Part shown: in pieces, positions 1-39,767 of the stretch | Position numbering within the stretch: the first letter of the stretch is position 1 | How the letters are laid out: each line of letters starts with the position of its first letter | Source of the DNA: a phage | Sequence record: PV935351.1 | Reading direction: 5' to 3' (one strand) | DNA length: 39,767 nt | The notes under the pieces: model-generated | Database searches by the model: none | Told to the model about the DNA's origin: nothing | The model's input: the letters and a program-made list of their open reading frames with translations, nothing else | Made by a program: the position numbers and the translations under genes

Positions 1-204
1 TCTCACAGTTCAAGAACCTCAAGTCTCCCCCCCTAGGCCCTCTTTCAGTCCAGACCAAAGGCCCTACCCATTACTGCTCCTTGCAGTCACAGCCAGTCTA
101 TCATAAGGTTGGACCGATGGTCAAGACGTTAGGTCGACGATAGGTCTAGGCTATGGCTTAGGGAAGGACGATAGGTAGAGGCTATAGGTCTTCTTTGAGT
201 CTCT
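1..204. repeat. left direct terminal repeat (DTR)
   Basis: Bases 1-204 are identical to 39564-39767 by direct comparison; typical of T7-like genome ends. Confidence 0.95.
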
Positions 205-234
205 ATCTGTATAGTGTTATAGTATAACATTACG

Positions 235-325
235 TCCTACACCTACAGTCTCACTAACCTACAGTCTCACTAACCTACAGTCTCAACCATAAGACACCAA
301 CACCTACAGTCAGAGACCTACGGTT
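235..325. repeat. short direct-repeat array just inside left DTR
   Basis: CCTACAGTCTCACTAA in three tandem copies (242-289, 16-bp period, third copy degenerate), plus CCTACAGTC at 303-311 and CCTACGGTT at 317-325. Confidence 0.8.
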
Positions 326-435
326 AATAGACACAAAGGCTATAGACTTAAGGTCTAAGACATGTTAGTCAAAGACTATATCCTCTTACACCATGGGGCC
401 GACGATAGCTTAATCAATATTATTTAAATAACCTA

Positions 436-466
436 TTGACTATAGGTCCAGACTATGGCCTAATAG
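436..466 (+). promoter_or_regulatory. candidate host sigma70 early promoter (weak match)
   Basis: TTGACT at 436-441 followed about 19 nt later by TAATAG; poor -10 match; lies in the early leader. Confidence 0.3.
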
Positions 467-575
467 CTTCCGTCAACACGACACGGCAACAACCGGATAG
501 TGAAGACGCCGGTCCGGTCCGGTTAAGTAGTCAGCCTGTAAGACATACGAACAACAGGCAACCGACAGAAAGTAG

Positions 576-605
576 TTGACAAGATGTAACGATAAGATGT
601 AAGAT
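576..605 (+). promoter_or_regulatory. candidate host sigma70 early promoter (T7 A3-like)
   Basis: TTGACA (576-581), 18-nt spacer, TAAGAT (600-605); the same -35/-10 hexamers as recalled for T7 A3. Confidence 0.5.
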
Positions 606-728
606 GTACCACATCGAAACAACGGTGATGACCAACACTGAAATGGTCTACCTGAAGTCCTCTGACTGAAGGGAATGCTCTTTAACAATCTGGATAAACT
701 CTTAATGTGCGCCGATAGCGACTAACTA

Positions 729-760
729 CAGGGCCTTTGAGTCTACATCTGAAGGCCCTG
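729..760 (+). other. stem-loop in gene 0.3 leader (possible RNase III site)
   Basis: CAGGGCCTT (729-737) and AAGGCCCTG (752-760) form a perfect 9-bp inverted repeat with a 14-nt loop, about 35 nt upstream of the gene 0.3 start. Confidence 0.5.
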
Positions 761-794
761 ACTGATAGTCACTAACAACTGAGAGGATATAACT

Positions 795-1304
795 ATGGAA
801 CGTAACGCTAACGCATACTATGAGCTGCTGGCTGCAACCGTTGAGCTGTTCAATGAGCGTATTCAGTGCGACGAAATAGCTGAAGGCGATGACTACAGCG
901 ATGCGCTACATGAGGTCGTAGACGGTAATGTTCCGCACTATTACCACGAGATTTTCACGGTGATGGCTGCTGATGGTATTGACCATGAGTTCGAAGACTC
1001 TGGGCTGATGCCTGAGACCAAGGACGTAACGCGTATACTACAAGCTCGCATCTATGAGGCACTGTATAACGATGTGTCTAATAGCTCTGACGTGGTCTGG
1101 TTTGAGGCTGAAGAGGAGGACGAAAAGGCTGAATATTGGGTAGTTGACACTAGAACAGGCGAGATAATTGATACAGCTGTATCAATTTACGAGGCTATTG
1201 CATGTGCAAAAGAACTATATGAGGAAGGTTTTCACATGCAGGTCGAAGACATCAACGATAACGTAGTGTTCGATCCTGAGGCTGCTGAGGAGGACTGCGA
1301 GTGA
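795..1304 (+). CDS. 0.3: Ocr-like DNA-mimic anti-restriction protein with C-terminal extension
   Basis: 169 aa; core [43 protein letters not shown] closely matches recalled T7 Ocr; about 55 extra acidic residues at the C-terminus; GAGG RBS. Confidence 0.85.
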
Positions 1305-1465
1305 TGGTAACTTATGGTCTCTGCCAGCACCACGTCTCCATCGCCAGGCTTATGGTCTTGACCGGGCGATTAACCCACGAGGAGTCTATGCGTCTCCTGA
1401 AGGTGCTCTATGAGCGCCGCAAACGTATGCACGATAGTCTACACGCTGAGGATAAACCACAATGA
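1304..1465 (+). CDS. small early protein, gp0.4-like
   Basis: 53 aa, ATG overlaps the gene 0.3 stop (TGATGG); GAGGAGG RBS; YGL...LLKVLYE pattern resembles recalled T7 gp0.4. Shorter than 60 aa, so absent from the ORF track. Confidence 0.5.
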   Translation: MVTYGLCQHHVSIARLMVLTGRLTHEESMRLLKVLYERRKRMHDSLHAEDKPQ

Positions 1466-1611
1466 AACGATACGCTATACACATTCCGGGATGGTGTTAC
1501 ACAATGACTTGCTACGGATACAACGAGAGAGACGCAAGAGCCCGCTTCCGTGACCAGCAAGGATTCGGTAAACGTCTGCCAAATGGTACGGCTATCTGGG
1601 AGATTGACTAA
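1462..1611 (+). CDS. hypothetical small early protein
   Basis: 49 aa (MKRYAIHIPGWCYTMTCYGYNERDARARF...), ATGA overlap with the upstream ORF, GAGG RBS. Confidence 0.45.
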   Translation: MKRYAIHIPGWCYTMTCYGYNERDARARFRDQQGFGKRLPNGTAIWEID

Positions 1612-1612
1612 C

Positions 1613-1738
1613 ATGTACCAGATAACTTATAGCAGTGAACAGGCGTTCTATGATGGGTGTTACGAGATGATGAAGCGTGGTGCTTGCTTCGTGGCTAATC
1701 ACCATGCGCTAACCATAACACTGACAGGTGGATACTGA
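1613..1738 (+). CDS. hypothetical small early protein
   Basis: 41 aa from ATG 1613 (MYQITYSSEQAFYDGCYEMMKRGACF...), GGGAG RBS; the track ORF 1550-1738 probably starts here. Confidence 0.4.
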   Translation: MYQITYSSEQAFYDGCYEMMKRGACFVANHHALTITLTGGY

Positions 1739-1808
1739 GTGATAGACGAGAGGTCATCTACTGATAGGTGGCCTCAAAGATTACCACTTACATTGATAGG
1801 ATTTAACT

Positions 1809-1913
1809 ATGAGTACTGCAATCATCTGGACCATCTCTGGCTTCGTAGCGTGGGGAATGTTTACTCTAGTCTGCAAACTACCGGTCCTTACTCAACTGTT
1901 ATGGGGCTTATGA
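1809..1913 (+). CDS. hypothetical small hydrophobic peptide
   Basis: 34 aa MSTAIIWTISGFVAWGMFTLVCKLPVLTQLLWGL, one predicted TM helix, AGGA upstream. Confidence 0.3.
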   Translation: MSTAIIWTISGFVAWGMFTLVCKLPVLTQLLWGL

Positions 1914-2113
1914 CTATGATATCTGCACTATTGATAGCCATAGGCTATGGACTTATCGCCTACGTGCTGGTGAGTGACATTAAAAAGGCGCGTAAAGTCT
2001 ACAAATTCAACTATGTACGTCTGGGCCGCTGGACCGTACGTCAACCTAACGGACGATTCATGCGCAACTTAGCGAACGTCTGGGATATAGCAACTATTGG
2101 GAGCAAACTGTAA
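1901..2113 (+). CDS. hypothetical small membrane protein (alternative GTG start at 1739)
   Basis: In-frame ATG at 1901 gives about 70 aa with hydrophobic segment MISALLIAIGYGLIAYVLV; the track's 1739 start is a GTG. Confidence 0.4.
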   Translation: MGLMTMISALLIAIGYGLIAYVLVSDIKKARKVYKFNYVRLGRWTVRQPNGRFMRNLANVWDIATIGSKL

Positions 2114-2505
2114 TGAACAAGTCAAATCGGGTACACGCACTGGACCAAATCATAACGCAACGCACATTCACTGATAAGAACGGCGTAGAGTGGAAGTATG
2201 TTGGAATGGACTCGCGTGGTCGCAACTACTGGGAGAAGACCGGGAGAAAGAGCGCTTATGTGCATCGTCGCTCGTCACACACCGTACGTCAACAGCAGGA
2301 GCGAGAGCGTGTACTTGAGGCACGACTCCGTGCCGAGGGCCATAAGTCTGAGCTGATGTGGCTGGTGTATGGTGGACGCCCAATCACTGACGATGGTAAA
2401 CTTCTGGTCTCAGGCTGGACGGCGAGAGACCAACGGTCAACCATCAAGCACACGACCAAAGGTGACTTCAGTCATCTCCACGCTAACCCACTGATATGCA
2501 AGTGA
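2113..2505 (+). CDS. hypothetical early protein
   Basis: 130 aa, basic; ATG overlaps the upstream stop (TAATG); GGGAG RBS; no motif recognised. Confidence 0.6.
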   Translation: MNKSNRVHALDQIITQRTFTDKNGVEWKYVGMDSRGRNYWEKTGRKSAYVHRRSSHTVRQQQERERVLEARLRAEGHKSELMWLVYGGRPITDDGKLLVSGWTARDQRSTIKHTTKGDFSHLHANPLICK

Positions 2506-2510
2506 TTCTG

Positions 2511-2533
2511 ACTTAACTATCACTATAGGACTC
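2511..2533 (+). promoter_or_regulatory. phage RNAP promoter upstream of the RNAP gene
   Basis: CTTAACTATCACTATAGGA, +1 G at 2528; -8 to -1 (TCACTATA) identical to the T7 promoter. Confidence 0.7.
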
Positions 2534-2602
2534 AAGGTCTAAGACTACAAGTGAAAGACCAAAGAGACTCTAAGTGAAAGACTAATAACAAGGACTTTAA
2601 GT

Positions 2603-5284
2603 ATGAGCGTCATCTCTATTGATAAACACGACTTCTCTGATGTGTCGAACGCCATTGAGCCGTTTAACCTGCTGGCAGACCACTACGGGCAAGACCTTGC
2701 AGTCAAACAGCTTCAGCTTGAGCATGAGGCATACACAGAAGGCGAGCGACGTTTCATCAAAAACCTTGAGCGACAGACTGAGCGCGGGGAACTGGCAGAC
2801 AATCAGGTCGCCAAGCCTTTGATGCAGACTCTGGTGCCTAAGATTGCGCAAGCAGTCAAGGAGTGGCACGAAGGCCAAGACGGGAAGCTGTCAACCTCTC
2901 GTCCTAGCGTAGCGTTCACCATGTTAAGCACCGAAGAGAAGGCCGTCAAGGACCGCTCTCTGCGTATCTCTTGCGAGTCTGCTGCGGTCATCATACTGAA
3001 GGTCATACTCTCCAAGCTGGTAAAGCCTGAAGGGATACCGATTACACCGATGGCCTCAGCGTTAGGTCGCACACTTGAGGACGAAATCCGCTTCGGTCGC
3101 ATCCGTGACAAGGAGAAGGAGCACTTCAAGAAGGCGATAGCTGAGAACCTGAACAAGCGAGCTGGGGCATCCTACAAGAAAGCCTACATGCAAGCGGTAG
3201 AGGCATCCATGCTGGAGCAAGGCCAACTGGAAGATGCGTGGGGGACTTGGAGTCCGACCGAAGCGGTACACGTTGGCATCAAGATGCTAGAGATTGTCAT
3301 CCAGTCCACACAACTGGTCGAGCTTAAGCGTTATGGTGCTGGCAATGCGGCGGCTGACGTTGAGATGGTCCACCTGTCAGACTTCTGGGTCAAGAAGATG
3401 GCACAACGAGGATTCAGCCTTGCGGGTATAGCTCCAGTCTACCAGCCTTGCGTCGTTCCACCTAAGCCGTGGACTGGTGTCGTAGGTGGTGGGTACTGGG
3501 CCAAAGGTCGCAGACCGCTACCCCTGATTCGCTTAGGGTCTAAATCAGCGGTGGCACGTTATGAAGACGTATACATGCCTGAAGTCTATGACGCTGTGAA
3601 TATCATCCAGAATACACCTTGGAAAGTGAACAAGAAGGTACTGGACGTGGTGAACATGGTCGAGAAGTTGAACAACACGCCTATTGATGACATCCCTCAG
3701 ATGGAGCCACTGAAGCCTGAAGACTATGCGGGTGAGACTGAGGAGGAACTCAAGGCATGGAAGAAGGCTGCTGCTGGTATCTATCGCCGCGAGAAGGCCC
3801 GACAGTCACGCAGATTATCACTGAGCTTTATCGTTAACCAAGCAAACAAGTTCTCTCAGTTCAAGGCCATCTGGTTCCCGTACAACATGGATTGGCGAGG
3901 TCGTGTCTACGCTGTCCCGATGTTCAACCCTCAGGGTAACGACATGCAGAAGGGTCTACTGACTCTGGCAGTCGGCAAGCCTATTGGTGCTGACGGTTTC
4001 AAATGGCTGAAGGTCCACGGTGCGAACTGTGCGGGTGTCGATAAAGTCACCTTCGAGGAGCGCATCAAGTGGGTGGAAGACAACCACGAAAACATCATTG
4101 CTGCTGCTAAGGCACCGATGGATAGTATTGAGTGGTGGGGCAAGTTAGACTCTCCGTTCTGTTTCCTCGCGTTCTGCTTCGAGTATGCTGGCGTAATGCA
4201 CCACGGCCTGTCTTACTCCTGCTCGCTGCCGATAGCGTTCGATGGGTCCTGCTCTGGTATTCAGCACTTCAGTGCGATGCTTCGTGACCACATCGGTGGA
4301 CATGCAGTAAACCTGACGCCATCCGGTAAGGTACAAGACATCTACCGCATTGTGTCTGACCGCATTGAGGAGGAGCTTAAAGTCCTGCTGATTACAGGTA
4401 CTGACAACGAGATGGACACTCACGAGGACAAGAAAACTGGTGAGAGTACCGAACGTATCAAGCTGGGGACACGAGAGCTGGCCCGTCAGTGGCTGACATA
4501 CGGTATGTCACGCAAGGTCACTAAGCGTTCAGTCATGACTCTGGCCTATGGGTCGAAAGAGTACGGCTTCGCAGACCAAGTTTATGAGGACATCGTGATG
4601 CCAGCGATTGACTCAGGGTCTGGCGCTATGTTCACCGAGCCTAGCCAAGCGTCTCGCTTCATGGCTAAGATGATTTGGGAAGCTGTGAGTGTGACCGTAG
4701 TTGCTGCGGTTGACGCGATGAAGTGGCTTCAAGGTGCTGCCAAGCTGCTGGCTGCTGAGGTGAAGGACAAGAAGACTGGAGAAATCCTGAAGCCTTGCCT
4801 TCCGGTACACTGGGTAACACCTGATGGTTTCCCGGTCTGGCAGGAATACCGCAAGAAGGATACCACTCGTCTGAACCTGATGTTCTTAGGGTCATTCAAC
4901 CTTCAACCTACGGTCAACAAAGGTATGAAGAAGGAGTTGGATAAGCACAAGCAGGAGTCAGGAATTAGCCCGAACTTCGTCCACTCACAAGATGGTAGCC
5001 ATCTCCGCAAGACTGTAGTCCACACTCACCGCAAGTATGGCGTGATGTCATTCGCAGTGATTCACGATAGCTTCGGGACCATCCCGGCTGACGCTGAGTA
5101 TCTGTTCCGTGGCGTCCGTGAGACAATGGTCGAGACCTACCGCGACAACGATGTGCTGCTTGACTTCTACGAGCAGTTTGAATACCAGCTTCACGAGAGC
5201 CAGCGCGACAAGTTGCCTGAGCTTCCGAAGAAAGGTAAACTAAATATCGAGGACATCTTGTCTTCAGACTTTGCATTCGCTTAA
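2603..5284 (+). CDS. 1: T7-type single-subunit DNA-directed RNA polymerase
   Basis: 893 aa; collinear with recalled T7 RNAP, ending in the shared FAFA terminus and including WFPYNMDWRGRVYA, LPIAFDGSCSGIQHFSAMLRD and HDSFGT. Confidence 0.98.
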   Translation: MSVISIDKHDFSDVSNAIEPFNLLADHYGQDLAVKQLQLEHEAYTEGERRFIKNLERQTERGELADNQVAKPLMQTLVPKIAQAVKEWHEGQDGKLSTSRPSVAFTMLSTEEKAVKDRSLRISCESAAVIILKVILSKLVKPEGIPITPMASALGRTLEDEIRFGRIRDKEKEHFKKAIAENLNKRAGASYKKAYMQAVEASMLEQGQLEDAWGTWSPTEAVHVGIKMLEIVIQSTQLVELKRYGAGNAAADVEMVHLSDFWVKKMAQRGFSLAGIAPVYQPCVVPPKPWTGVVGGGYWAKGRRPLPLIRLGSKSAVARYEDVYMPEVYDAVNIIQNTPWKVNKKVLDVVNMVEKLNNTPIDDIPQMEPLKPEDYAGETEEELKAWKKAAAGIYRREKARQSRRLSLSFIVNQANKFSQFKAIWFPYNMDWRGRVYAVPMFNPQGNDMQKGLLTLAVGKPIGADGFKWLKVHGANCAGVDKVTFEERIKWVEDNHENIIAAAKAPMDSIEWWGKLDSPFCFLAFCFEYAGVMHHGLSYSCSLPIAFDGSCSGIQHFSAMLRDHIGGHAVNLTPSGKVQDIYRIVSDRIEEELKVLLITGTDNEMDTHEDKKTGESTERIKLGTRELARQWLTYGMSRKVTKRSVMTLAYGSKEYGFADQVYEDIVMPAIDSGSGAMFTEPSQASRFMAKMIWEAVSVTVVAAVDAMKWLQGAAKLLAAEVKDKKTGEILKPCLPVHWVTPDGFPVWQEYRKKDTTRLNLMFLGSFNLQPTVNKGMKKELDKHKQESGISPNFVHSQDGSHLRKTVVHTHRKYGVMSFAVIHDSFGTIPADAEYLFRGVRETMVETYRDNDVLLDFYEQFEYQLHESQRDKLPELPKKGKLNIEDILSSDFAFA

Positions 5285-5298
5285 CAGGAGAGAGAGTT

Positions 5299-5514
5299 AT
5301 GAAATTTGCACACAAGCAGGCTGGAGTTAATGGTGGGACTCAAATCGTGACCGTAACAGAACACAACGGAAAGGGTCTGGTGAAGACCACGGTCATTCCT
5401 ACCGAAATGTCAAAGCAGCTTAACGTCCCATTCAAGACCCTCGTCTATCTTGTGGAATCCAGCCACGAGAAATACCTGAAAGACGCAGTGACCAAGCTGG
5501 AGCAGACCAAATGA
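5299..5514 (+). CDS. hypothetical protein
   Basis: 71 aa with a strong RBS (AGGAGAGAG); no motif recognised. Confidence 0.55.
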   Translation: MKFAHKQAGVNGGTQIVTVTEHNGKGLVKTTVIPTEMSKQLNVPFKTLVYLVESSHEKYLKDAVTKLEQTK

Positions 5515-5589
5515 CAGACCTACAGTTACTGGCCTTGTGGCTTGGAGCACTAGCAGTATTCACTTTAATCCAACGCAGAAGAGGTTAAC

Positions 5590-5612
5590 CCTAAACTATC
5601 ACTATAGGATTA
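5590..5612 (+). promoter_or_regulatory. phage RNAP promoter
   Basis: CTAAACTATCACTATAGGA, +1 G at 5607. Confidence 0.8.
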
Positions 5613-5662
5613 GACTCAAGGTCATGACTCAAAGTCGTGGCCTTCATGATTAACCCTAACTC
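5611..5662 (+). ncRNA. conserved structured RNA element, copy A (candidate RNase III site)
   Basis: TAGACTCAAGGTCAT, 11 variable nt, GTGGCCTTCATGATTAACCCTAACT; the same element recurs at 12952 and 36562. Confidence 0.55.
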
Positions 5663-5682
5663 ATTCAATCAGGAGCTACACC

Positions 5683-5862
5683 ATGTATCAGAACACTATC
5701 AACTTCGAGCGAATCCGTGAACGTCAGCAGACTGAAGACTACATTCCGAAGGGACGCAAGCTGAACAAGACCAAGCGTGGCGGCGGTGTCAAGGGTGCTT
5801 TCCGTAACGCTGAAGGCAAAGACTCTATGGTAAACCAAGAGAAGTATTTCGTAGGAGCGTAA
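5683..5862 (+). CDS. 1.1: gp1.1-like small basic protein
   Basis: 59 aa; KGRKLNKTKR matches recalled T7 gp1.1; GGAG RBS. Not in the ORF track (under 60 aa). Confidence 0.7.
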   Translation: MYQNTINFERIRERQQTEDYIPKGRKLNKTKRGGGVKGAFRNAEGKDSMVNQEKYFVGA

Positions 5863-5865
5863 GAC

Positions 5866-6117
5866 ATGAGTAAACGTTGGCTATTCGACGCATCCACGAG
5901 CCAGTGGTCAGCGGTAGGCCGGACTCACCGCGCGATGAGTGAGGCAGGACTTGATGTCCTAATGGATTACTCGCCGTTCCCCGGAAAAATTCTGGTCAGA
6001 GTAATTGAAGCAGATGGTGGGAGGCTTCTGGTCTCCAGAGAATTTACCGAAGATGAAATCTTTAACTGTGAGCAATGGTGCTTACAACAATTGAACGCTT
6101 ATAGGAGCTGGAAATAA
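5866..6117 (+). CDS. 1.2: gp1.2-like protein (T7 gp1.2 inhibits host dGTPase)
   Basis: 83 aa, same size and position as T7 gp1.2, ends ...NAYRSWK (T7 ends ...DWK). Confidence 0.7.
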   Translation: MSKRWLFDASTSQWSAVGRTHRAMSEAGLDVLMDYSPFPGKILVRVIEADGGRLLVSREFTEDEIFNCEQWCLQQLNAYRSWK

Positions 6118-7169
6118 TGACAACGACTATCAAAACTAACCCGCACCGCGCTGTAGATTACTCTGAGTCTGGCGTTAAGAAGGCACTGGAAGCAGCCGGG
6201 TCGCTTGAAGCTGAAGTGAAGTACGATGGCGTCCGGTTGAATCTTCCGGTCTTCCCTACTGGTGAGACCCAATGGTTGAGCCGTGAGTCTAAACCTCTCC
6301 CAGCCCTTAGCTGGTTGAACACTTCCGGTCAGGACATAGGAGCTACCAAAGCGAGCGACTGGCGGTGGTTCCTGAAGCAAGCTGGCTATGAAGGGACTGG
6401 TCTGATGATTGATGGCGAGGTCATGGTGAAAGGGGTTGACTTCAACACGTCTTCGGGCCTCATCCGCACGAAGTATGTCAAGTCTAAAAACTACGACTTC
6501 CACGATGGCGATTGGGACCTCAAGTCCAAGACTACTCAGTTCCGGCTGGACCGAGACCATATCAAGGTGGTCGTCTACGGTGTAGTGGACCTTAACGTCA
6601 TCCTTGACCCGAAAGCCGAAGGTCCTATCCATAGCGTCACACGCCTGAAGGCCGAAGCTATCGTCCCTCTCCTCCAGAAATACTTCCCGGAAATCGACTG
6701 GGTTCTGTCTGAGTCACACACGGTCTATGACCTTGAGTCGCTCAGCTCCCTGTACGAAGAGAAGCGGCTGGAAGGACATGAGGGTCTGGTAGTCAAGGAC
6801 CCGCTTGGTAAATACAAGCGTGGCAAGAAGTCAGGCATGTGGAAAATGAAGCCTGAGGAGACCATCGACGGGACCGTGTGTGGCCTAGTGTGGGGGACTC
6901 CGGGCAAGGCTAACGAAGGTAAGGTGATTGGCTTTGAGGTGCTGCTTGAGGATGGCATGGTGGTTAACGCTTGTGGCCTGACTGAAGAACAGAAGGATGA
7001 GTTTACGGAAGCCTGTAACACTGATACATATATCCTCGGTGAAATCAATCCATACGAAGGCTGGCAGTGTGAAGTCCTTTTCATGGAGAGGTTCCCTGAT
7101 GGCTCACTCCGTCACCCTAGCTTCAAGTGCTGGCGCGGGACGGAAGACAACCCGACCGTTAAGAGTTAA
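6117..7169 (+). CDS. 1.3: ATP-dependent DNA ligase
   Basis: 350 aa; adenylation motif I KYDGVR at residues 35-40; T7 gene 1.3 position. Confidence 0.95.
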   Translation: MTTTIKTNPHRAVDYSESGVKKALEAAGSLEAEVKYDGVRLNLPVFPTGETQWLSRESKPLPALSWLNTSGQDIGATKASDWRWFLKQAGYEGTGLMIDGEVMVKGVDFNTSSGLIRTKYVKSKNYDFHDGDWDLKSKTTQFRLDRDHIKVVVYGVVDLNVILDPKAEGPIHSVTRLKAEAIVPLLQKYFPEIDWVLSESHTVYDLESLSSLYEEKRLEGHEGLVVKDPLGKYKRGKKSGMWKMKPEETIDGTVCGLVWGTPGKANEGKVIGFEVLLEDGMVVNACGLTEEQKDEFTEACNTDTYILGEINPYEGWQCEVLFMERFPDGSLRHPSFKCWRGTEDNPTVKS

Positions 7170-7231: not shown

Positions 7232-7254
7232 CCTAAACTATCACTATAGGACAA
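7232..7254 (+). promoter_or_regulatory. phage RNAP promoter
   Basis: CCTAAACTATCACTATAGGAC, +1 G at 7249. Confidence 0.8.
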
Positions 7255-8387: not shown

Positions 8388-8460
8388 GAGAAAATTTGAG
8401 GAGACAGGTAACGTCGATTACCTTCATCTCTACAACCAATGGAAGGAGCGTGGTCTATGA
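8353..8460 (+). CDS. hypothetical small ORF (gene 1.8 position)
   Basis: 35 aa, overlaps the HNH gene end and the gene 2 start; no clear RBS. Confidence 0.25.
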
Positions 8461-8615
8461 CTGACGTAGAAAAGAAATACATCGTGGAGCTTGAGGGTCG
8501 CGTTCAGTCATTCGATGTTCCGGTGTACGCAAAGTCTCTTGAAGAGGCTACCCTGAAGTCCCAAGAGTATGAGGACGCGGGGTTTGTGGTCGGACGGATT
8601 CGTCCTGAGACCTAA
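8457..8615 (+). CDS. 2: gp2-like inhibitor of host RNA polymerase
   Basis: 52 aa [31 protein letters not shown]...[11 protein letters not shown]; resembles recalled T7 gp2; GGAAGGAG RBS. Confidence 0.75.
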
Positions 8616-8633
8616 ACTATCACTGTAGGACAG
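8611..8633 (+). promoter_or_regulatory. phage RNAP promoter (variant, G at -3)
   Basis: CCTAAACTATCACTGTAGGAC; overlaps the gene 2 stop; precedes the SSB gene. Confidence 0.6.
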
Positions 8634-9824: not shown

Positions 9825-10315
9825 TGACTCAGAAATATAGACTTAAAGTTAGCCGCTACGGGTGGCCTGAAGGTACTATCGTTACGAAATGTGCGAAAGA
9901 CCCGTACCCAACGCCATTATCGACTCTGGTAGAAACCTCCGAGCGTGGCACCTACAAGCACGGAGCAGAAGGGCATAACACGCAGCCTGATGGTATGTGG
10001 GGGGCATGGGTCTGTGATCATGAACTTGAGGAAATCAAGCCGGAAGAGAAACTCACTGGTGTACAGACCACTCAAGTCCTGCCAGCCTCAAGTGTCCCTC
10101 CTGTCACCGTTAAGCGTGAAGTCCTGACCATCGACAAGATTGGTGTAGGCCAGACGTTCATCGTCCACGGAAAGCCTGAAGAAGTTTATGTGAAGATTAG
10201 CAACTCACACGTCTTCAACCATAAGCGTCTCCAGATGCACACCACGGACGCACAACGCTTCACCCAGCACCTGAATCTAGTGGTCGTAGAAGTGGTGGTG
10301 TACAATGGTAAGTAA
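9824..10315 (+). CDS. hypothetical protein with no T7 counterpart at this position
   Basis: 163 aa from ATG 9824 (AAGGAG RBS; the track start at 9821 is a GTG); no motif recognised. Confidence 0.7.
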   Translation: MTQKYRLKVSRYGWPEGTIVTKCAKDPYPTPLSTLVETSERGTYKHGAEGHNTQPDGMWGAWVCDHELEEIKPEEKLTGVQTTQVLPASSVPPVTVKREVLTIDKIGVGQTFIVHGKPEEVYVKISNSHVFNHKRLQMHTTDAQRFTQHLNLVVVEVVVYNGK

Positions 10316-10763
10316 GGTACAGTTCAACCCACGGTCCCGTACTGACGCTATCTTCGTTCACTGTTCGGCTACCAAGCCAGATATGGACATCGGGGTAGAT
10401 ACCATCCGTATGTGGCACAAGCAGCAAGGCTGGCTGGACGTAGGCTACCACTTTATCATCAAGCGTGATGGCACTGTAGAAGAGGGTCGCCCGGTCAATG
10501 TCGTAGGGTCACACGTTAAGGATTGGAACTCCCGGTCCGTAGGAGTCTGCCTTGTAGGGGGAATTGACGCTAAGGGTCAGTTTGAAGCTAACTTCACTCC
10601 AGCCCAGATGAACTCCCTGCGCAACAAGCTGGCTGACCTGAAGTCCATGTATCCTCAGGCAGAAATCAAAGCACACCATGACGTAGCACCTAAGGCGTGT
10701 CCAAGTTTCGACTTGCAACGCTGGCTGTCTACTAATGAACTGGTCACTTCAGACCGTGGTTAG
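10305..10763 (+). CDS. 3.5: N-acetylmuramoyl-L-alanine amidase (T7 lysozyme)
   Basis: 152 aa; TDAIFVHCSATKP...WLDVGYHFIIKRDGTVEEGR...HHDVAPKACPSFDL...NELVTSDRG nearly identical to recalled T7 gp3.5. Confidence 0.97.
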   Translation: MVSKVQFNPRSRTDAIFVHCSATKPDMDIGVDTIRMWHKQQGWLDVGYHFIIKRDGTVEEGRPVNVVGSHVKDWNSRSVGVCLVGGIDAKGQFEANFTPAQMNSLRNKLADLKSMYPQAEIKAHHDVAPKACPSFDLQRWLSTNELVTSDRG

Positions 10764-10787: not shown

Positions 10788-11003
10788 ATGATTAAACTTA
10801 TTGAATTTCTTGGTCGTCTGGTGGTGCGTGGTTATCGTCGTGCTGCGATACTGGAACGAAAGGTAGAAAAGAAGACTGCTGACAGTGCGGCTGATGCTGC
10901 TGCTCTGGCCGACAAGCTGACCATCGAGTCACTGGAAGCTGGCATGAAGGCTCGTCAGGCTGATACCAAAGCTGACCAATTGGCTCAGTTCTTCAAAGCC
11001 TAA
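10788..11003 (+). CDS. hypothetical protein
   Basis: 71 aa, hydrophobic N-terminus then Ala/Lys-rich helix; AAGGAGA RBS. Confidence 0.6.
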   Translation: MIKLIEFLGRLVVRGYRRAAILERKVEKKTADSAADAAALADKLTIESLEAGMKARQADTKADQLAQFFKA

Positions 11004-11021
11004 ACTATCACCTTAGGGATG
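10999..11021 (+). promoter_or_regulatory. degenerate phage-promoter-like sequence upstream of gene 4
   Basis: CTAAACTATCACCTTAGGGA; two changes at -4/-3 relative to the other promoters. Confidence 0.35.
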
Positions 11022-11041
11022 GGACCGCTAGTCCTGTCCCT
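11015..11041 (+). other. stable hairpin in the gene 4 leader
   Basis: AGGGATGGGA / TCCTGTCCCT 10-bp stem (two G-U pairs), 7-nt loop, followed by TTGTT. Confidence 0.5.
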
Positions 11042-11068: not shown

Positions 11069-12948
<1,880 letters not shown>

Positions 12949-17209: not shown

Positions 17210-17232
17210 ACTAAACTATCACTATAGGGACT
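17210..17232 (+). promoter_or_regulatory. phage RNAP promoter
   Basis: CTAAACTATCACTATAGGGAC, +1 G at 17227; flanked by a 9-bp inverted repeat (17169-17177 / 17244-17252). Confidence 0.8.
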
Positions 17233-18466: not shown

Positions 18467-20035
18467 ATGGCTGAACGTGAAGGGTTCGCTGCTGAAGGAG
18501 CCAAAGCGGTCTATGACCGCCTGAAGAACGGTAGACAGCCATATGAGACACGCGCTCAGAATTGTGCTGCTGTCACTATCCCGTCACTGTTTCCTAAGGA
18601 GTCCGACAACTCGTCTACTGAGTACACCACTCCGTGGCAAGCTGTAGGTGCTCGCTGTTTGAACAACTTGGCTGCAAAGCTGATGTTGGCGTTATTCCCT
18701 CAGTCACCGTGGATGCGACTTACAGTCTCCGAATATGAGGCTAAGACCTTGAGTCAGGACTCAGAGGCTGCTGCTCGTGTTGACGAGGGGCTTGCTATGG
18801 TCGAGCGTGTGTTGATGGCCTACATGGAGACAAACAGTTTCCGTGTGCCATTGTTCGAAGCTCTGAAACAGCTTATAGTCTCCGGTAACTGTCTGCTCTA
18901 CATTCCAGAGCCTGAACAGGGAACCTACAGTCCCATGCGAATGTACCGCTTAGTGTCTTACGTTGTTCAACGTGATGCGTTCGGTAACATCTTGCAGATT
19001 GTGACTCTCGACAAGGTAGCGTTTAGTGCTCTACCGGAAGACGTGAAGTCTCAACTCAACGCAGACGACTATGAGCCTGACACCGAGCTGGAAGTGTATA
19101 CGCACATTTACCGTCAGGACGACGAATATCTACGCTACGAGGAAGTGGAAGGCATTGAGGTAGCAGGGACCGATGGTTCTTACCCACTGACTGCCTGTCC
19201 ATACATCCCGGTACGAATGGTTCGACTGGACGGTGAAGACTATGGTCGCTCTTATTGCGAGGAGTATCTGGGAGACCTGAACTCGCTGGAGACGATTACA
19301 GAAGCTATCACCAAAATGGCTAAGGTAGCCTCCAAGGTGGTGGGCCTCGTTAACCCGAACGGTATCACGCAACCTCGTCGTCTGAACAAGGCGGCTACAG
19401 GTGAGTTCGTGGCTGGTCGCGTTGAGGACATCAACTTCCTGCAACTGACGAAAGGTCAGGACTTTACGATTGCCAAGTCGGTGGCTGATGCTATCGAGCA
19501 ACGTTTAGGCTGGGCCTTCCTTCTTAATAGTGCTGTTCAGCGTAATGCCGAGCGAGTCACTGCTGAAGAGATTCGTTACGTTGCTGGTGAACTGGAGGCG
19601 ACCTTAGGTGGCGTGTACTCTGTACAGTCACAAGAGCTTCAGTTACCTATCGTCCGTGTGCTGATGAACCAACTTCAGTCTGCTGGCATGATTCCTGACC
19701 TTCCGAAAGAAGCGGTTGAGCCTACGGTATCCACTGGTCTGGAAGCGTTAGGTCGTGGTCAGGACTTGGAGAAGCTAACTCAGGCAGTCAACATGATGAC
19801 CGGGCTACAGCCTCTGCAACAGGACCCAGACATTAACTTGCCCACCCTTAAGCTGCGACTGCTGAATGCCTTAGGCATTGATACTGCTGGTCTTCTGCTG
19901 ACTCAGGACGAAAAGATGCAACGTATTGCTGAACAATCCGCTCAAGGAGCTGTGGTCAACGGTGCGTCTGCTGCTGGTGCTAATATGGGCGCTGCTGTAG
20001 GTCAGGGAGCTGGTGAGGACATGGCTCAAGCCTAA
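18467..20035 (+). CDS. 8: head-to-tail connector (portal) protein
   Basis: 522 aa; PYETRAQNCA, TPWQAVGAR, YRLVSYVVQRDAFGN, ACPYIPVRMVRLDGEDYGRSY match recalled T7 gp8. Confidence 0.97.
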   Translation: MAEREGFAAEGAKAVYDRLKNGRQPYETRAQNCAAVTIPSLFPKESDNSSTEYTTPWQAVGARCLNNLAAKLMLALFPQSPWMRLTVSEYEAKTLSQDSEAAARVDEGLAMVERVLMAYMETNSFRVPLFEALKQLIVSGNCLLYIPEPEQGTYSPMRMYRLVSYVVQRDAFGNILQIVTLDKVAFSALPEDVKSQLNADDYEPDTELEVYTHIYRQDDEYLRYEEVEGIEVAGTDGSYPLTACPYIPVRMVRLDGEDYGRSYCEEYLGDLNSLETITEAITKMAKVASKVVGLVNPNGITQPRRLNKAATGEFVAGRVEDINFLQLTKGQDFTIAKSVADAIEQRLGWAFLLNSAVQRNAERVTAEEIRYVAGELEATLGGVYSVQSQELQLPIVRVLMNQLQSAGMIPDLPKEAVEPTVSTGLEALGRGQDLEKLTQAVNMMTGLQPLQQDPDINLPTLKLRLLNALGIDTAGLLLTQDEKMQRIAEQSAQGAVVNGASAAGANMGAAVGQGAGEDMAQA

Positions 20036-20053
20036 ACTATCACTATAGGAACT
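20031..20053 (+). promoter_or_regulatory. phage RNAP promoter
   Basis: CCTAAACTATCACTATAGGAAC, +1 G at 20048; the transcript 5' end (ATAGGAAC) can pair with GTTCCTAT at 20097-20104. Confidence 0.8.
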
Positions 20054-21017: not shown

Positions 21018-21040
21018 ACTAAACTATCACTATAGGGAGA
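21018..21040 (+). promoter_or_regulatory. phage RNAP promoter for the major capsid gene (phi10-like)
   Basis: CTAAACTATCACTATAGGGAGACC; +1 to +8 GGGAGACC as in T7 phi10; leader stem GGGAGACC / GGTTCCCC; RBS AGGAGA...CATATG. Confidence 0.9.
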
Positions 21041-25408: not shown

Positions 25409-25458
25409 AAGGGCCTATAGATTTACCTTAACTATCACTATAGGGACTATAGGCCCTT
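25409..25458 (+). other. 12-bp perfect inverted repeat enclosing the gene 13 promoter (candidate RNase III site)
   Basis: AAGGGCCTATAG (25409-25420) / CTATAGGCCCTT (25447-25458), 26-nt loop containing promoter positions -17 to +3. Confidence 0.6.
25426..25448 (+). promoter_or_regulatory. phage RNAP promoter
   Basis: CCTTAACTATCACTATAGGGAC, +1 G at 25443. Confidence 0.8.
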
Positions 25459-31800: not shown

Positions 31801-32706
31801 AGTAAGCGTAAGTTCGATGACCGCTGGCTGAAGACCGCTGGTATATCTGACGAGCAGTGGAATGGCATTAAGTCCCTAATCCGTGAGTCAGTGACTCGTG
31901 GTCCAGACGGGAAGTACACCATCAAGGATAAGAAGGCGTTCAGTCAGGACCCAAGGGCTATGGACCTATGGCGTATGGGTGATACCATCGCTGACGAAAC
32001 GTTACTACGTCCTCATAAGCTGTCCAACATGGACGCAAAGGCTTATGGTCCTATCGCTAAGACTGTCCTTCAGTTTAAGAACTTCGTCATCAAGTCCATC
32101 AATGGGCGAACCATGCGTACCTTCTATAACGCCACGAAGAACAACCGAGCGATTGACGCTGCACTATCGACCGTGATGTCTATGGGTCTGGCTGGTATCT
32201 ACTACATGGCTCAGGCGCACGTCAAGGCTTATGCTATGCAGGATGGTCGAGACCGTGACTACCTTAAGCAAGCTCTGGACCCGACGATGATTGGTTATGC
32301 GGCTCTGTCCCGTAGTTCACATCTGGGTGGACCACTTGGGGTAGCTAACATTCTGGGTGGCATCGCTGGGTATGAGGACACTAAGATGCTCCGTTCGTCT
32401 ATCCTACCTCGTTCGCCCACAGAGAAGCCTGAACGTGCCATCGCGTATGGTGCAGCTACAAGTGACCCTGTGATGAATGTTGTTGGTAACTTCTTGGAGC
32501 AGGTTCCAGCTTTCGGATATGCTGCTAACGTTGGTGCTTCGGCTTATAACTTGGCTGGCTACCTGAAGGCCGACACTCGGGTAAACGAGCGAGACTACAT
32601 GACCGGGATGTATAACACCTTCCGTGAACTGGTTCCGAACGACCCGATTACTCAGAAGTTGCTACTGGGAACGTTTGAGGAGCAAGGTATCCACATCAAG
32701 GACTAA
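28819..32706 (+). CDS. 16: internal virion protein D (ejection core) with a non-T7-type N-terminal domain
   Basis: 1295 aa; from about residue 200 collinear with recalled T7 gp16 (TWFGFG, VRSPTGMQSGASGK, RPEVKKRVDE, MPAYDRRVNGDIAIMG, LSRSS); the N-terminal 130 aa lack the T7 transglycosylase TESRF motif. Confidence 0.93.
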   Translation: MATRGIRNNNPGNIRVSKDQWEGMTGDDGAFVTFDSPESGVRALGKNLLSYGRQGYDSIEKIINRWAPPNENETKAYIDSVVAATGIPATQSLDLSNPDTLSSLAQAISFHETGSRYDPEVYQKGVARALNGISPKTPPVSANVFDALTEGLKAKPKVALGENLPTAAGLNIEGQAPEAPNESFGEMFYKSTGETMQEREDRSTWFGFGSATEAEVKNSMVGVAIRAGQTEDSLDVIGDVFNPTRWNNHKWSREELDQIRNAGVLPQYYGVITGGSPQNLTELINLALENQKLDQEKAKAGTGAQLAAGVIGAGVDPLTYVPIAGQIGKGGKLVNKMFTVAAQSGALAGVSEMARTSVAGGDAHVAEAILGGALFGGGMTAIADGLGRALGRNTNEFAGPATRLEARETARNVDGQDLSRLPIQEGEETFSYQGVKFADVPNEPGSVRLEDGSILIGENPLNPKTRQVFDEVIEPERAAAGVNLGGLTEIGLKLLRSENPEIRGVASDLVRSPTGMQSGASGKIGTTASDVFERLRAVDHRFYNDIDDAVTEALKDPYFQTAFWRDSGAFRQDIYQRVSMAIEDGSGNLKAELTPGELKVYDLLKNQFDAKREMMENPAMFGRPDAQSIFPGSRFKGTYVPHVYSKQMKELYTKELGSPEALQEAIKKSWLTSYASRPEVKKRVDEALLESDPTLTPEGLAAAVDKYANDKAYGISHTEQFERSSVMEENINGLVGLENNSFLEARNLFDSDMSIVLPNGQTFSVNNLREWDMDKIVPAYNRRVNGDIAIMAGTGKTTKDMKDLVETMMNKAGDDGKLKGEVSTLRDTLKILTGRARRDGADDAAFATVMRTMTDLSFFAKNAYMGVQNLTEIGGMLARGNVRAMLHGVPIFRDLAFRNKKVGASEIKDLHNVIFGKELDDSIRPSKQDVIDRLRSYSDLGRGTATALGTAKYYTGELAVRSPFTKVLNGTTNYLLDAGRQGFLSDIVEHSLTGSKRKFDDRWLKTAGISDEQWNGIKSLIRESVTRGPDGKYTIKDKKAFSQDPRAMDLWRMGDTIADETLLRPHKLSNMDAKAYGPIAKTVLQFKNFVIKSINGRTMRTFYNATKNNRAIDAALSTVMSMGLAGIYYMAQAHVKAYAMQDGRDRDYLKQALDPTMIGYAALSRSSHLGGPLGVANILGGIAGYEDTKMLRSSILPRSPTEKPERAIAYGAATSDPVMNVVGNFLEQVPAFGYAANVGASAYNLAGYLKADTRVNERDYMTGMYNTFRELVPNDPITQKLLLGTFEEQGIHIKD

Positions 32707-32724
32707 ACTATCACTATAGGAAAC
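32702..32724 (+). promoter_or_regulatory. phage RNAP promoter for the tail fibre gene
   Basis: CTAAACTATCACTATAGGAAAC, +1 G at 32719; overlaps the gene 16 stop. Confidence 0.8.
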
Positions 32725-38962: not shown

Positions 38963-38985
38963 ACTTAACTATCACTATAGGGAAG
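38963..38985 (+). promoter_or_regulatory. phage RNAP promoter near the right end (phiOR-like)
   Basis: CTTAACTATCACTATAGGGAAG, +1 G at 38980. Confidence 0.8.
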
Positions 38986-39563: not shown

Positions 39564-39767
39564 TCTCACAGTTCAAGAACCTCAAGTCTCCCCCCCTAGG
39601 CCCTCTTTCAGTCCAGACCAAAGGCCCTACCCATTACTGCTCCTTGCAGTCACAGCCAGTCTATCATAAGGTTGGACCGATGGTCAAGACGTTAGGTCGA
39701 CGATAGGTCTAGGCTATGGCTTAGGGAAGGACGATAGGTAGAGGCTATAGGTCTTCTTTGAGTCTCT
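39564..39767. repeat. right direct terminal repeat (DTR)
   Basis: Identical to bases 1-204. Confidence 0.95.

Follow-up and report, generated by a model that had tools for sequence, protein, structure and literature searches.

A phage-type promoter immediately upstream of the RNA polymerase gene is conserved in Kayfunavirus and would make gene 1 a natural autogene

Can the RNA polymerase of a T7-like phage transcribe its own gene from a phage promoter placed directly before it? The spacer in front of gene 1 in PV935351.1 raises this question, and a sequence-only reading had suggested that it might, noting a full match to the phage promoter 75 nt upstream of gene 1 that would let the polymerase amplify its own transcription. 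We confirmed the match itself: CTTAACTATCACTATAGGA lies at 2512–2530 on the + strand, with the predicted start at G2528 and the ATG of gene 1 at 2603. The proposed self-amplification is plausible from the layout of the locus, since a member of the phage promoter family stands directly before gene 1 and no terminator is predicted in the leader or in the gene.

The window, by which we mean the whole stretch of 39,767 bp analyzed here (PV935351.1), begins and ends with an exact direct terminal repeat of 204 bp (1–204 and 39564–39767). This repeat, together with the relatives of the sequence, identifies the window as a complete linear genome of a T7-like phage. Just inside the left terminal repeat, at about 235–315 on the − strand, we observed an array of short repeats with GACTGTAGGT (e.g., GAGACTGTAGGTTAGTGA, several copies), which resembles the repeat arrays of T7-like phages near the concatemer junction. 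Gene 1 (2603–5284, + strand) encodes a T7-type single-subunit RNA polymerase of 893 aa (Pfam RNA_pol, 2.8e-106, and RPOL_N) that shares 64% identity with the enzymes of T7 and T3. Over the 1.6 kb surrounding this gene, the window is about 92–95% identical to the listed Kayfunavirus phages of Escherichia, Salmonella, Citrobacter, and Klebsiella, and a 341-nt query centered on the promoter showed at most 97% identity with Kayfunavirus phages. By sequence, the phage is a K1F-like member of the genus Kayfunavirus (Studiervirinae). An Ocr homolog is encoded in the early region at 795–1304. The ORFs directly 5′ of gene 1 (1739–2113 and 2113–2505) gave no Pfam match, and no gp0.7-type kinase was found there; a kinase gene ahead of gene 1 is carried by Dev2, P7124, and CR8.

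Taken from −17 to +6, the predicted promoter for the phage RNA polymerase is ACTTAACTATCACTATAGGACTC at 2511–2533 (+ strand), with +1 assigned to G2528 by analogy with T7 numbering. It is intergenic: the preceding ORF stops at 2505, gene 1 starts with the ATG at 2603, and the predicted +1 is 75 nt from this ATG. Genome-wide, ten sites were found at up to three mismatches, all on the + strand, compared with 0.01 in shuffled sequence, and they occupy the positions expected from the T7 map. Following the gene 1 site, the next phage promoter is located 3′ of gene 1 and a 71-aa ORF (5590–5612, +1 at 5607); the others are at 7232–7254 (+1 at 7249), 8611–8633 (an CACTGTAGG variant, +1 at 8628), 17210–17232 (+1 at 17227), 20031–20053 (+1 at 20048), 21018–21040 (with a GGGAGA start, +1 at 21035), 25426–25448 (+1 at 25443), 32702–32724 (+1 at 32719), and 38963–38985, which is the phiOR position (+1 at 38980). 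The 5607 promoter is directly followed by a canonical T7/T3 R1.1-type RNase III hairpin, GACTCAAGGTCATGACTCAAAGTCGTGGCCTTCATGATTAAC, at 5612–5655, and then by a homolog of gp1.1 (5683–5862, 45% identical to T7 gp1.1). At the opposite side of gene 1, no phiOL-like phage promoter was detected, with no site of at least 8 bits in positions 1–2500.

With a leave-one-out weight matrix, the gene 1 site scored 31.8 bits, within the range of the other nine promoters (29.3–36.1 bits), from which it differs by 0 to 3 mismatches. This score is the third lowest among the ten, and the initially transcribed sequence at 2528 is GGACTC, as opposed to the GGGAGA of the strongest sites, so the gene 1 promoter may be of modest strength. 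A GGA start and a score in the middle to lower part of the family range point to a class II-like promoter. In consensus, position, and specificity match, the site has the sequence properties of a “phi” promoter of the T7 group of phages.

An eleventh, weaker promoter-like site, CCTAAACTATCACCTTAGGGATG, was observed at 11000–11022 (+1 at 11016, 25.3 bits). It directly precedes a 566-aa ORF at 11072, which holds the primase/helicase position according to the annotation of Ro45lw, and Ro45lw has a similar variant in the same place.

Public annotation of the site is uneven. The identical 23 bp of EcoDS1 (EU734172, 2244–2266) are annotated as “promoter, phi”, and EcoDS1 shares the spacer and the distance to gene 1 with the window, showing no substantive difference. 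The homologous site of CR8 (NC_023548, 3356–3378) is annotated as a “predicted promoter”, and the GenBank records of K1F, Dev2, and Ro45lw leave the gene 1 promoter unannotated. In PE3-1 (KJ748011, 2874–2896), the identical 23 bp are labeled “host RNAP promoter”; because they do not differ from the phage consensus site, this label is probably an annotation error. The gene 1 promoter is real, ordinary, and already in public records, and is not new. Among the records of related phages, OP272491 (Enterobacter phage 02_vB_Eclo_IJM) lists 130 short CDSs with the polymerase in five pieces, a fragmentation that suggests many frameshift sequencing errors.

In the searchable literature, we found no transcript 5′-end or in vitro data for Kayfunavirus and no statements on a promoter “upstream of gene 1”, and we found no published functional test of the gene 1 promoter in relatives. 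A K1F-type promoter has been matched with a T7 polymerase that carries the recognition loop of K1F, as stated in the passage of PMC11880802 that cites Temme et al.

The distribution of the site was assessed in 80 IMG/VR contigs encoding related polymerases, where loci with a polymerase at least 88% identical were counted as Kayfunavirus-type. All 20 Kayfunavirus-type loci carried the promoter at −75, −76, or −81 of gene 1, and the reference genomes that we checked all had it as well. Of about 58 T7-, T3-, Berlin-, and K11-type loci, none had a phage promoter at 400 nt or less from gene 1, and most of them possessed a phiOL-type site 1.1–3.4 kb upstream of the gene. CR8, a Citrobacter phage of the sister genus Caroctavirus with a 78% identical polymerase, has a promoter at −93 of gene 1, located in the same spacer as that of the window but bearing CR8’s own specificity. 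Since the relatives share the site and the T7, T3, Berlin, and K11 types lack it, we regard a promoter in this position as a trait of the clade (Kayfunavirus and Caroctavirus) and not as a peculiarity of PV935351.1.

Across ten Kayfunavirus genomes, the region from −17 to +12 is nearly invariant save for a specificity switch and single changes at −13, −3, and −2; about 10 nt just 5′ of the promoter and the middle of the leader are variable, with indels. In the Dev2/Ro45lw/P7124 sub-clade, the gene 1 promoter differs from the other promoters of the respective genomes in having −2A (CACTAAAGG), and the leader is 6 nt longer and rearranged. The −2A form may be an attenuated variant.

The specificity switch, in the region from −12 to −8, concerns CtuP_B1 (Cronobacter), 02_vB_Eclo_IJM (Enterobacter, Eclo_IJM02), and contig L029, which use AACCCTCACTATAGG genome-wide and carry the same version before gene 1, corresponding to a change from AACTAT to AACCCT. 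The specificity-loop residues of the polymerases of these AACCC lineages were read in CtuP_B1 and L029; in both enzymes, T7 position 748 is occupied by D and position 756 by R, matching T3. The polymerases of the window and of Ro45lw have N at both positions. In CR8, AAGGTACACTATAGG (AAGGTA type) is present at all five sites found (5/5), the gene 1 site included. Because the site tracks the specificity of the polymerase at each change, it appears to have been retained as the target of that polymerase, and we regard this co-variation as strong evidence that the gene 1 site is a functional target of its polymerase. With the loop residues read in CtuP_B1 and L029, the wholly switched, T3-like promoter sets of CtuP_B1, Eclo_IJM02, and L029 represent a natural polymerase/promoter specificity switch within one genus.

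The leader of the predicted phage-polymerase transcript of gene 1 comprises 75 nt (2528–2602, + strand) and is A-rich and purine-rich, with 63% A+T and 70% purine, which is within the top 1–4% of genome windows. Its A+T content lies at the 96th to 99th percentile, with other promoter leaders of the genome equal or richer. A Shine-Dalgarno sequence AAGGA is located at 2590–2594 (+ strand), 8 nt before the ATG, and the last 15 nt of the leader together with the ATG (AGGACTTTAAGTATG) are identical to the ribosome-binding region of T7 gene 1.1.

A direct repeat had also been noted in the leader. The repeat is real, consisting of exact 11-mers AAGTGAAAGAC at 2549–2559 and 2572–2582; the second copy had been placed at 2574–2584, which is off by 2. 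These 11-mers form the core of an imperfect 21-nt direct repeat (2542–2562 and 2565–2585, + strand) that is 86% identical by sequence comparison, and a degenerate third unit is found at 2529–2547. An exact 11-nt repeat occurred in 0.19% of composition-matched shuffles of the leader and in 10 of the 1588 genome windows of 75 nt; about six other places in the genome have such a repeat. Both copies are kept in the K1F-type relatives, and the Dev2/Ro45lw type keeps one exact copy only.

No significant structure was detected in the leader, with fold z-scores of 0.10 (2528–2620) and −0.50 (2440–2620). The fold energy was −15.2 kcal/mol for the 93 nt at 2528–2620 and −11.3 kcal/mol for the 75-nt leader alone, while T3 RNase III sites of 49–54 nt reach about −19 kcal/mol. 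In a consensus fold of nine relatives, the only pairing was long-range, a stem of 9 bp (−4.3 kcal/mol) that is invariant and shows no covariation, and Rfam gave no match anywhere in the window. The leader opens with ACTCAAGGTC at 2530–2539, which is the 5′-arm motif of T7/T3 RNase III sites. We rejected an RNase III site R1 or a structured leader at this position, given the missing GGCCTT partner, the z-scores, and the lack of covariation.

How does this arrangement differ from that of T7? The sequence-only reading had described T7 gene 1 as transcribed only by the host RNAP, with the first phage promoter downstream of it, which is imprecise: phiOL is annotated in the RefSeq records of T7 (405) and T3 (366–388), ahead of all early genes. 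As the left-most phage promoter, upstream of gene 1, phiOL likewise allows the phage polymerase to transcribe that gene. Judged from the genomes, the true contrast with T7 is the position of the promoter and not its presence or absence. In T7 and T3, phiOL lies at the left end, before A1–A3 and about 2.6–2.8 kb upstream of gene 1, whereas the promoter of the window is only 75 nt away from it. In the spacer between gene 0.7 and gene 1, T7 and T3 have promoter C, a minor E. coli promoter, to which T3 adds the RNase III site R1; Kayfunavirus has no phiOL, and its gene 1 spacer contains a phage promoter.

Comparable arrangements have been described in other phages. LUZ100, a distant Pseudomonas phage with temperate features, shares a phage-polymerase promoter immediately before its polymerase gene; there, ONT-cappable-seq located the start of phi1 (PMC10134795), whereas the start in the window is predicted. 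The authors suggest a positive feedback loop in which read-through by the host polymerase primes the system and the phage enzyme then amplifies its own transcription (PMC10134795), with a MarR-type repressor proposed to gate the loop. No lysogeny module like that of LUZ100 is encoded in the examined region of the window. In phiA318, the promoter predicted ahead of the kinase and polymerase genes has been interpreted in terms of autoregulation (PMC4099482), and in phiKMV-type phages the phage promoters follow the polymerase gene (PMC10914365). In engineered T7 autogenes and in mutants with a relocated gene 1, the polymerase gene stands behind its own promoter, as in the window, but these constructs are artificial, whereas the Kayfunavirus arrangement is natural and conserved across the genus. 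An engineered T7 autogene with the polymerase gene downstream of its own promoter was reportedly constructed by Dubendorff and Studier in 1991.

A promoter at this place could also be functional and yet serve mainly in DNA replication, as a counterpart of the T7 phi1.1B/T3 phi1.05 origin cassette: its transcripts would prime or open a primary or secondary origin, and gene 1 would be self-transcribed only incidentally. This account is compatible with an autogene, and we consider it unlikely. Within T7 1–6600, the best match of the leader is 5966–6009, the phi1.1B leader ending in the identical AGGACTTTAAGTATG; this match covers the 3′ half of the leader and scores 39, compared with 21.2 ± 2.3 (maximum 30) for shuffles. 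In T7, this segment belongs to the primary replication origin. However, the similarity is mostly ribosome-binding region, ACTTTAAG-type motifs are common in the leaders of this genome (20 near-matches), and the 63% A+T of the leader is below the 71% of the T7 leader and is equaled or exceeded by other leaders of the window. In T3, the primary origin is annotated directly after phi1.05, and the leader there shares the AAGGTCT and TTTAAGAC motifs. Kayfunavirus is also devoid of phiOL, which is the secondary origin of T7, and in the window the single promoter after gene 1 is followed by the RNase III-type hairpin and not by an A/T-rich leader. Slightly more doubtful still is the scenario in which the phi1.1B/origin-leader cassette, located after gene 1 in T7, now stands before gene 1 in Kayfunavirus and Caroctavirus, with phiOL lost. 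The T7 phi1.1B leader does resemble that of the window, as a promoter with an A/T-rich leader ending in AGGACTTTAAGTATG, but it precedes gene 1.1, downstream of gene 1. The ORF directly after gene 1 in the window (5299–5514), tried as a candidate for gene 1.1, was rejected, having no similarity to T7 gp1.1, and the 83-aa ORF at 5866–6117 showed no similarity to T7 gp1.2. The true gp1.1 homolog lies downstream of the 5607 promoter, which weakens a simple move of the cassette, and its leader differs from that of T7 gene 1.1. If the cassette had indeed moved, one element would act as both autogene switch and replication origin, coupling the amplification of the polymerase to the start of DNA replication.

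It is very improbable that the site is non-functional or vestigial (e.g., a recombination relic), with gene 1 expressed from host promoters alone as in the textbook T7 scheme. Such a reading could draw on the literature search, in which no experimental initiation data turned up, and on the records of several relatives that leave the site unannotated (K1F, Dev2, and Ro45lw), but position and sequence are conserved in all relatives examined, and the site has switched specificity along with the remaining promoter set three times; these joint switches speak against a relic free of selection. Least probable of all is that the site acts as a host sigma-70 promoter and corresponds to promoter C, the minor E. 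coli promoter in the equivalent spacer of T7 and T3. The PE3-1 label agrees with it, yet a consensus scan found no sigma-70-like hexamer pair on the + strand near 2450–2600, and the 23 bp match the phage consensus and are identical to the “phi” site of EcoDS1.

We consider it likely that the site is a functional promoter for the phage’s own polymerase and transcribes gene 1. Once the leading genome end has entered the cell, the host sigma-70 polymerase would initiate at 436–472 (+ strand), which has 3 mismatches to EcoDS1 469–505, the first “host RNAP promoter” there, and at a second sigma-70-like early promoter predicted by a consensus scan at 576–605 (+ strand; TTGACA, 18 nt, TAAGAT). We infer that the 436–472 promoter is the source of the first gene 1 transcripts. 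The host polymerase would read through the small early genes into gene 1, giving the first phage polymerase molecules; this read-through is expected from the T7 paradigm and because no terminator intervenes, the consensus scan having detected nothing that resembles a terminator on the + strand between the left end and the end of gene 1, including 2528–5284. The phage polymerase would then start at G2528 and produce a transcript consisting of the unstructured, A-rich 75-nt leader with a good ribosome-binding site, gene 1, and the downstream genes. As neither a terminator nor a sigma-70 promoter is predicted in or near the leader, transcripts from 2528 would have to cross gene 1. With its cognate promoter directly 5′ and no predicted terminator between, gene 1 has the layout of an autogene, and the phage enzyme can very probably transcribe its own gene. 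Gene 1 would be both early (host-transcribed) and middle (self-transcribed), that is, a natural autogene.

Such an autogene would amplify polymerase synthesis and sustain the supply after the host polymerase is stopped by the gp2 homolog, a predicted host-RNAP inhibitor (8439–8615, + strand; Pfam RNA_pol_inhib, 2.6e-19). By its role in T7, this protein would stop the host polymerase from transcribing gene 1, and the 2528 promoter would be the source that remains. T7 lysozyme inhibits T7 RNAP, and the T7 class II promoters are the class most sensitive to this inhibition. The gp3.5 amidase/lysozyme homolog of the window (10305–10763, + strand; Pfam Amidase_2, 1.3e-16) would probably damp the loop in the way that T7 lysozyme acts on T7 class II promoters, and a class II-like promoter combined with lysozyme sensitivity would provide a built-in brake. 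What the sequences show is that the site belongs to the promoter family, is conserved, and varies together with polymerase specificity, and that no terminator is predicted; we infer that transcription begins at 2528, that the host polymerase primes the loop, and that lysozyme damps it.

Whether the phage gains from such feedback is a separate matter. According to the part of PMC3737178 that discusses Endy et al. 2000, T7 with gene 1 behind T7 promoters departed from the predictions of simple feedback models, and given the behavior of these relocation mutants, a fitness benefit should not be assumed. Faster genome entry as the purpose of the promoter was rejected by reasoning: gene 1 must be internalized and translated before any phage polymerase exists, and in T7 the promoters just 3′ of gene 1 would already be inside by then.

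Overall, the value of these results lies in confirmation and in a clearer account of the lineages that carry the arrangement, and not in discovery. They indicate that the textbook T7 rule, by which the polymerase gene is a purely host-transcribed early gene, would fail for a whole genus of T7-like phages. Work on the K1 capsule and on phage therapy makes use of Kayfunavirus phages, and synthetic biology has adopted their polymerase/promoter pair. An autogene of this kind, natural and conserved, would be a useful comparison for models of T7 expression timing and for the design of self-amplifying orthogonal polymerase circuits.
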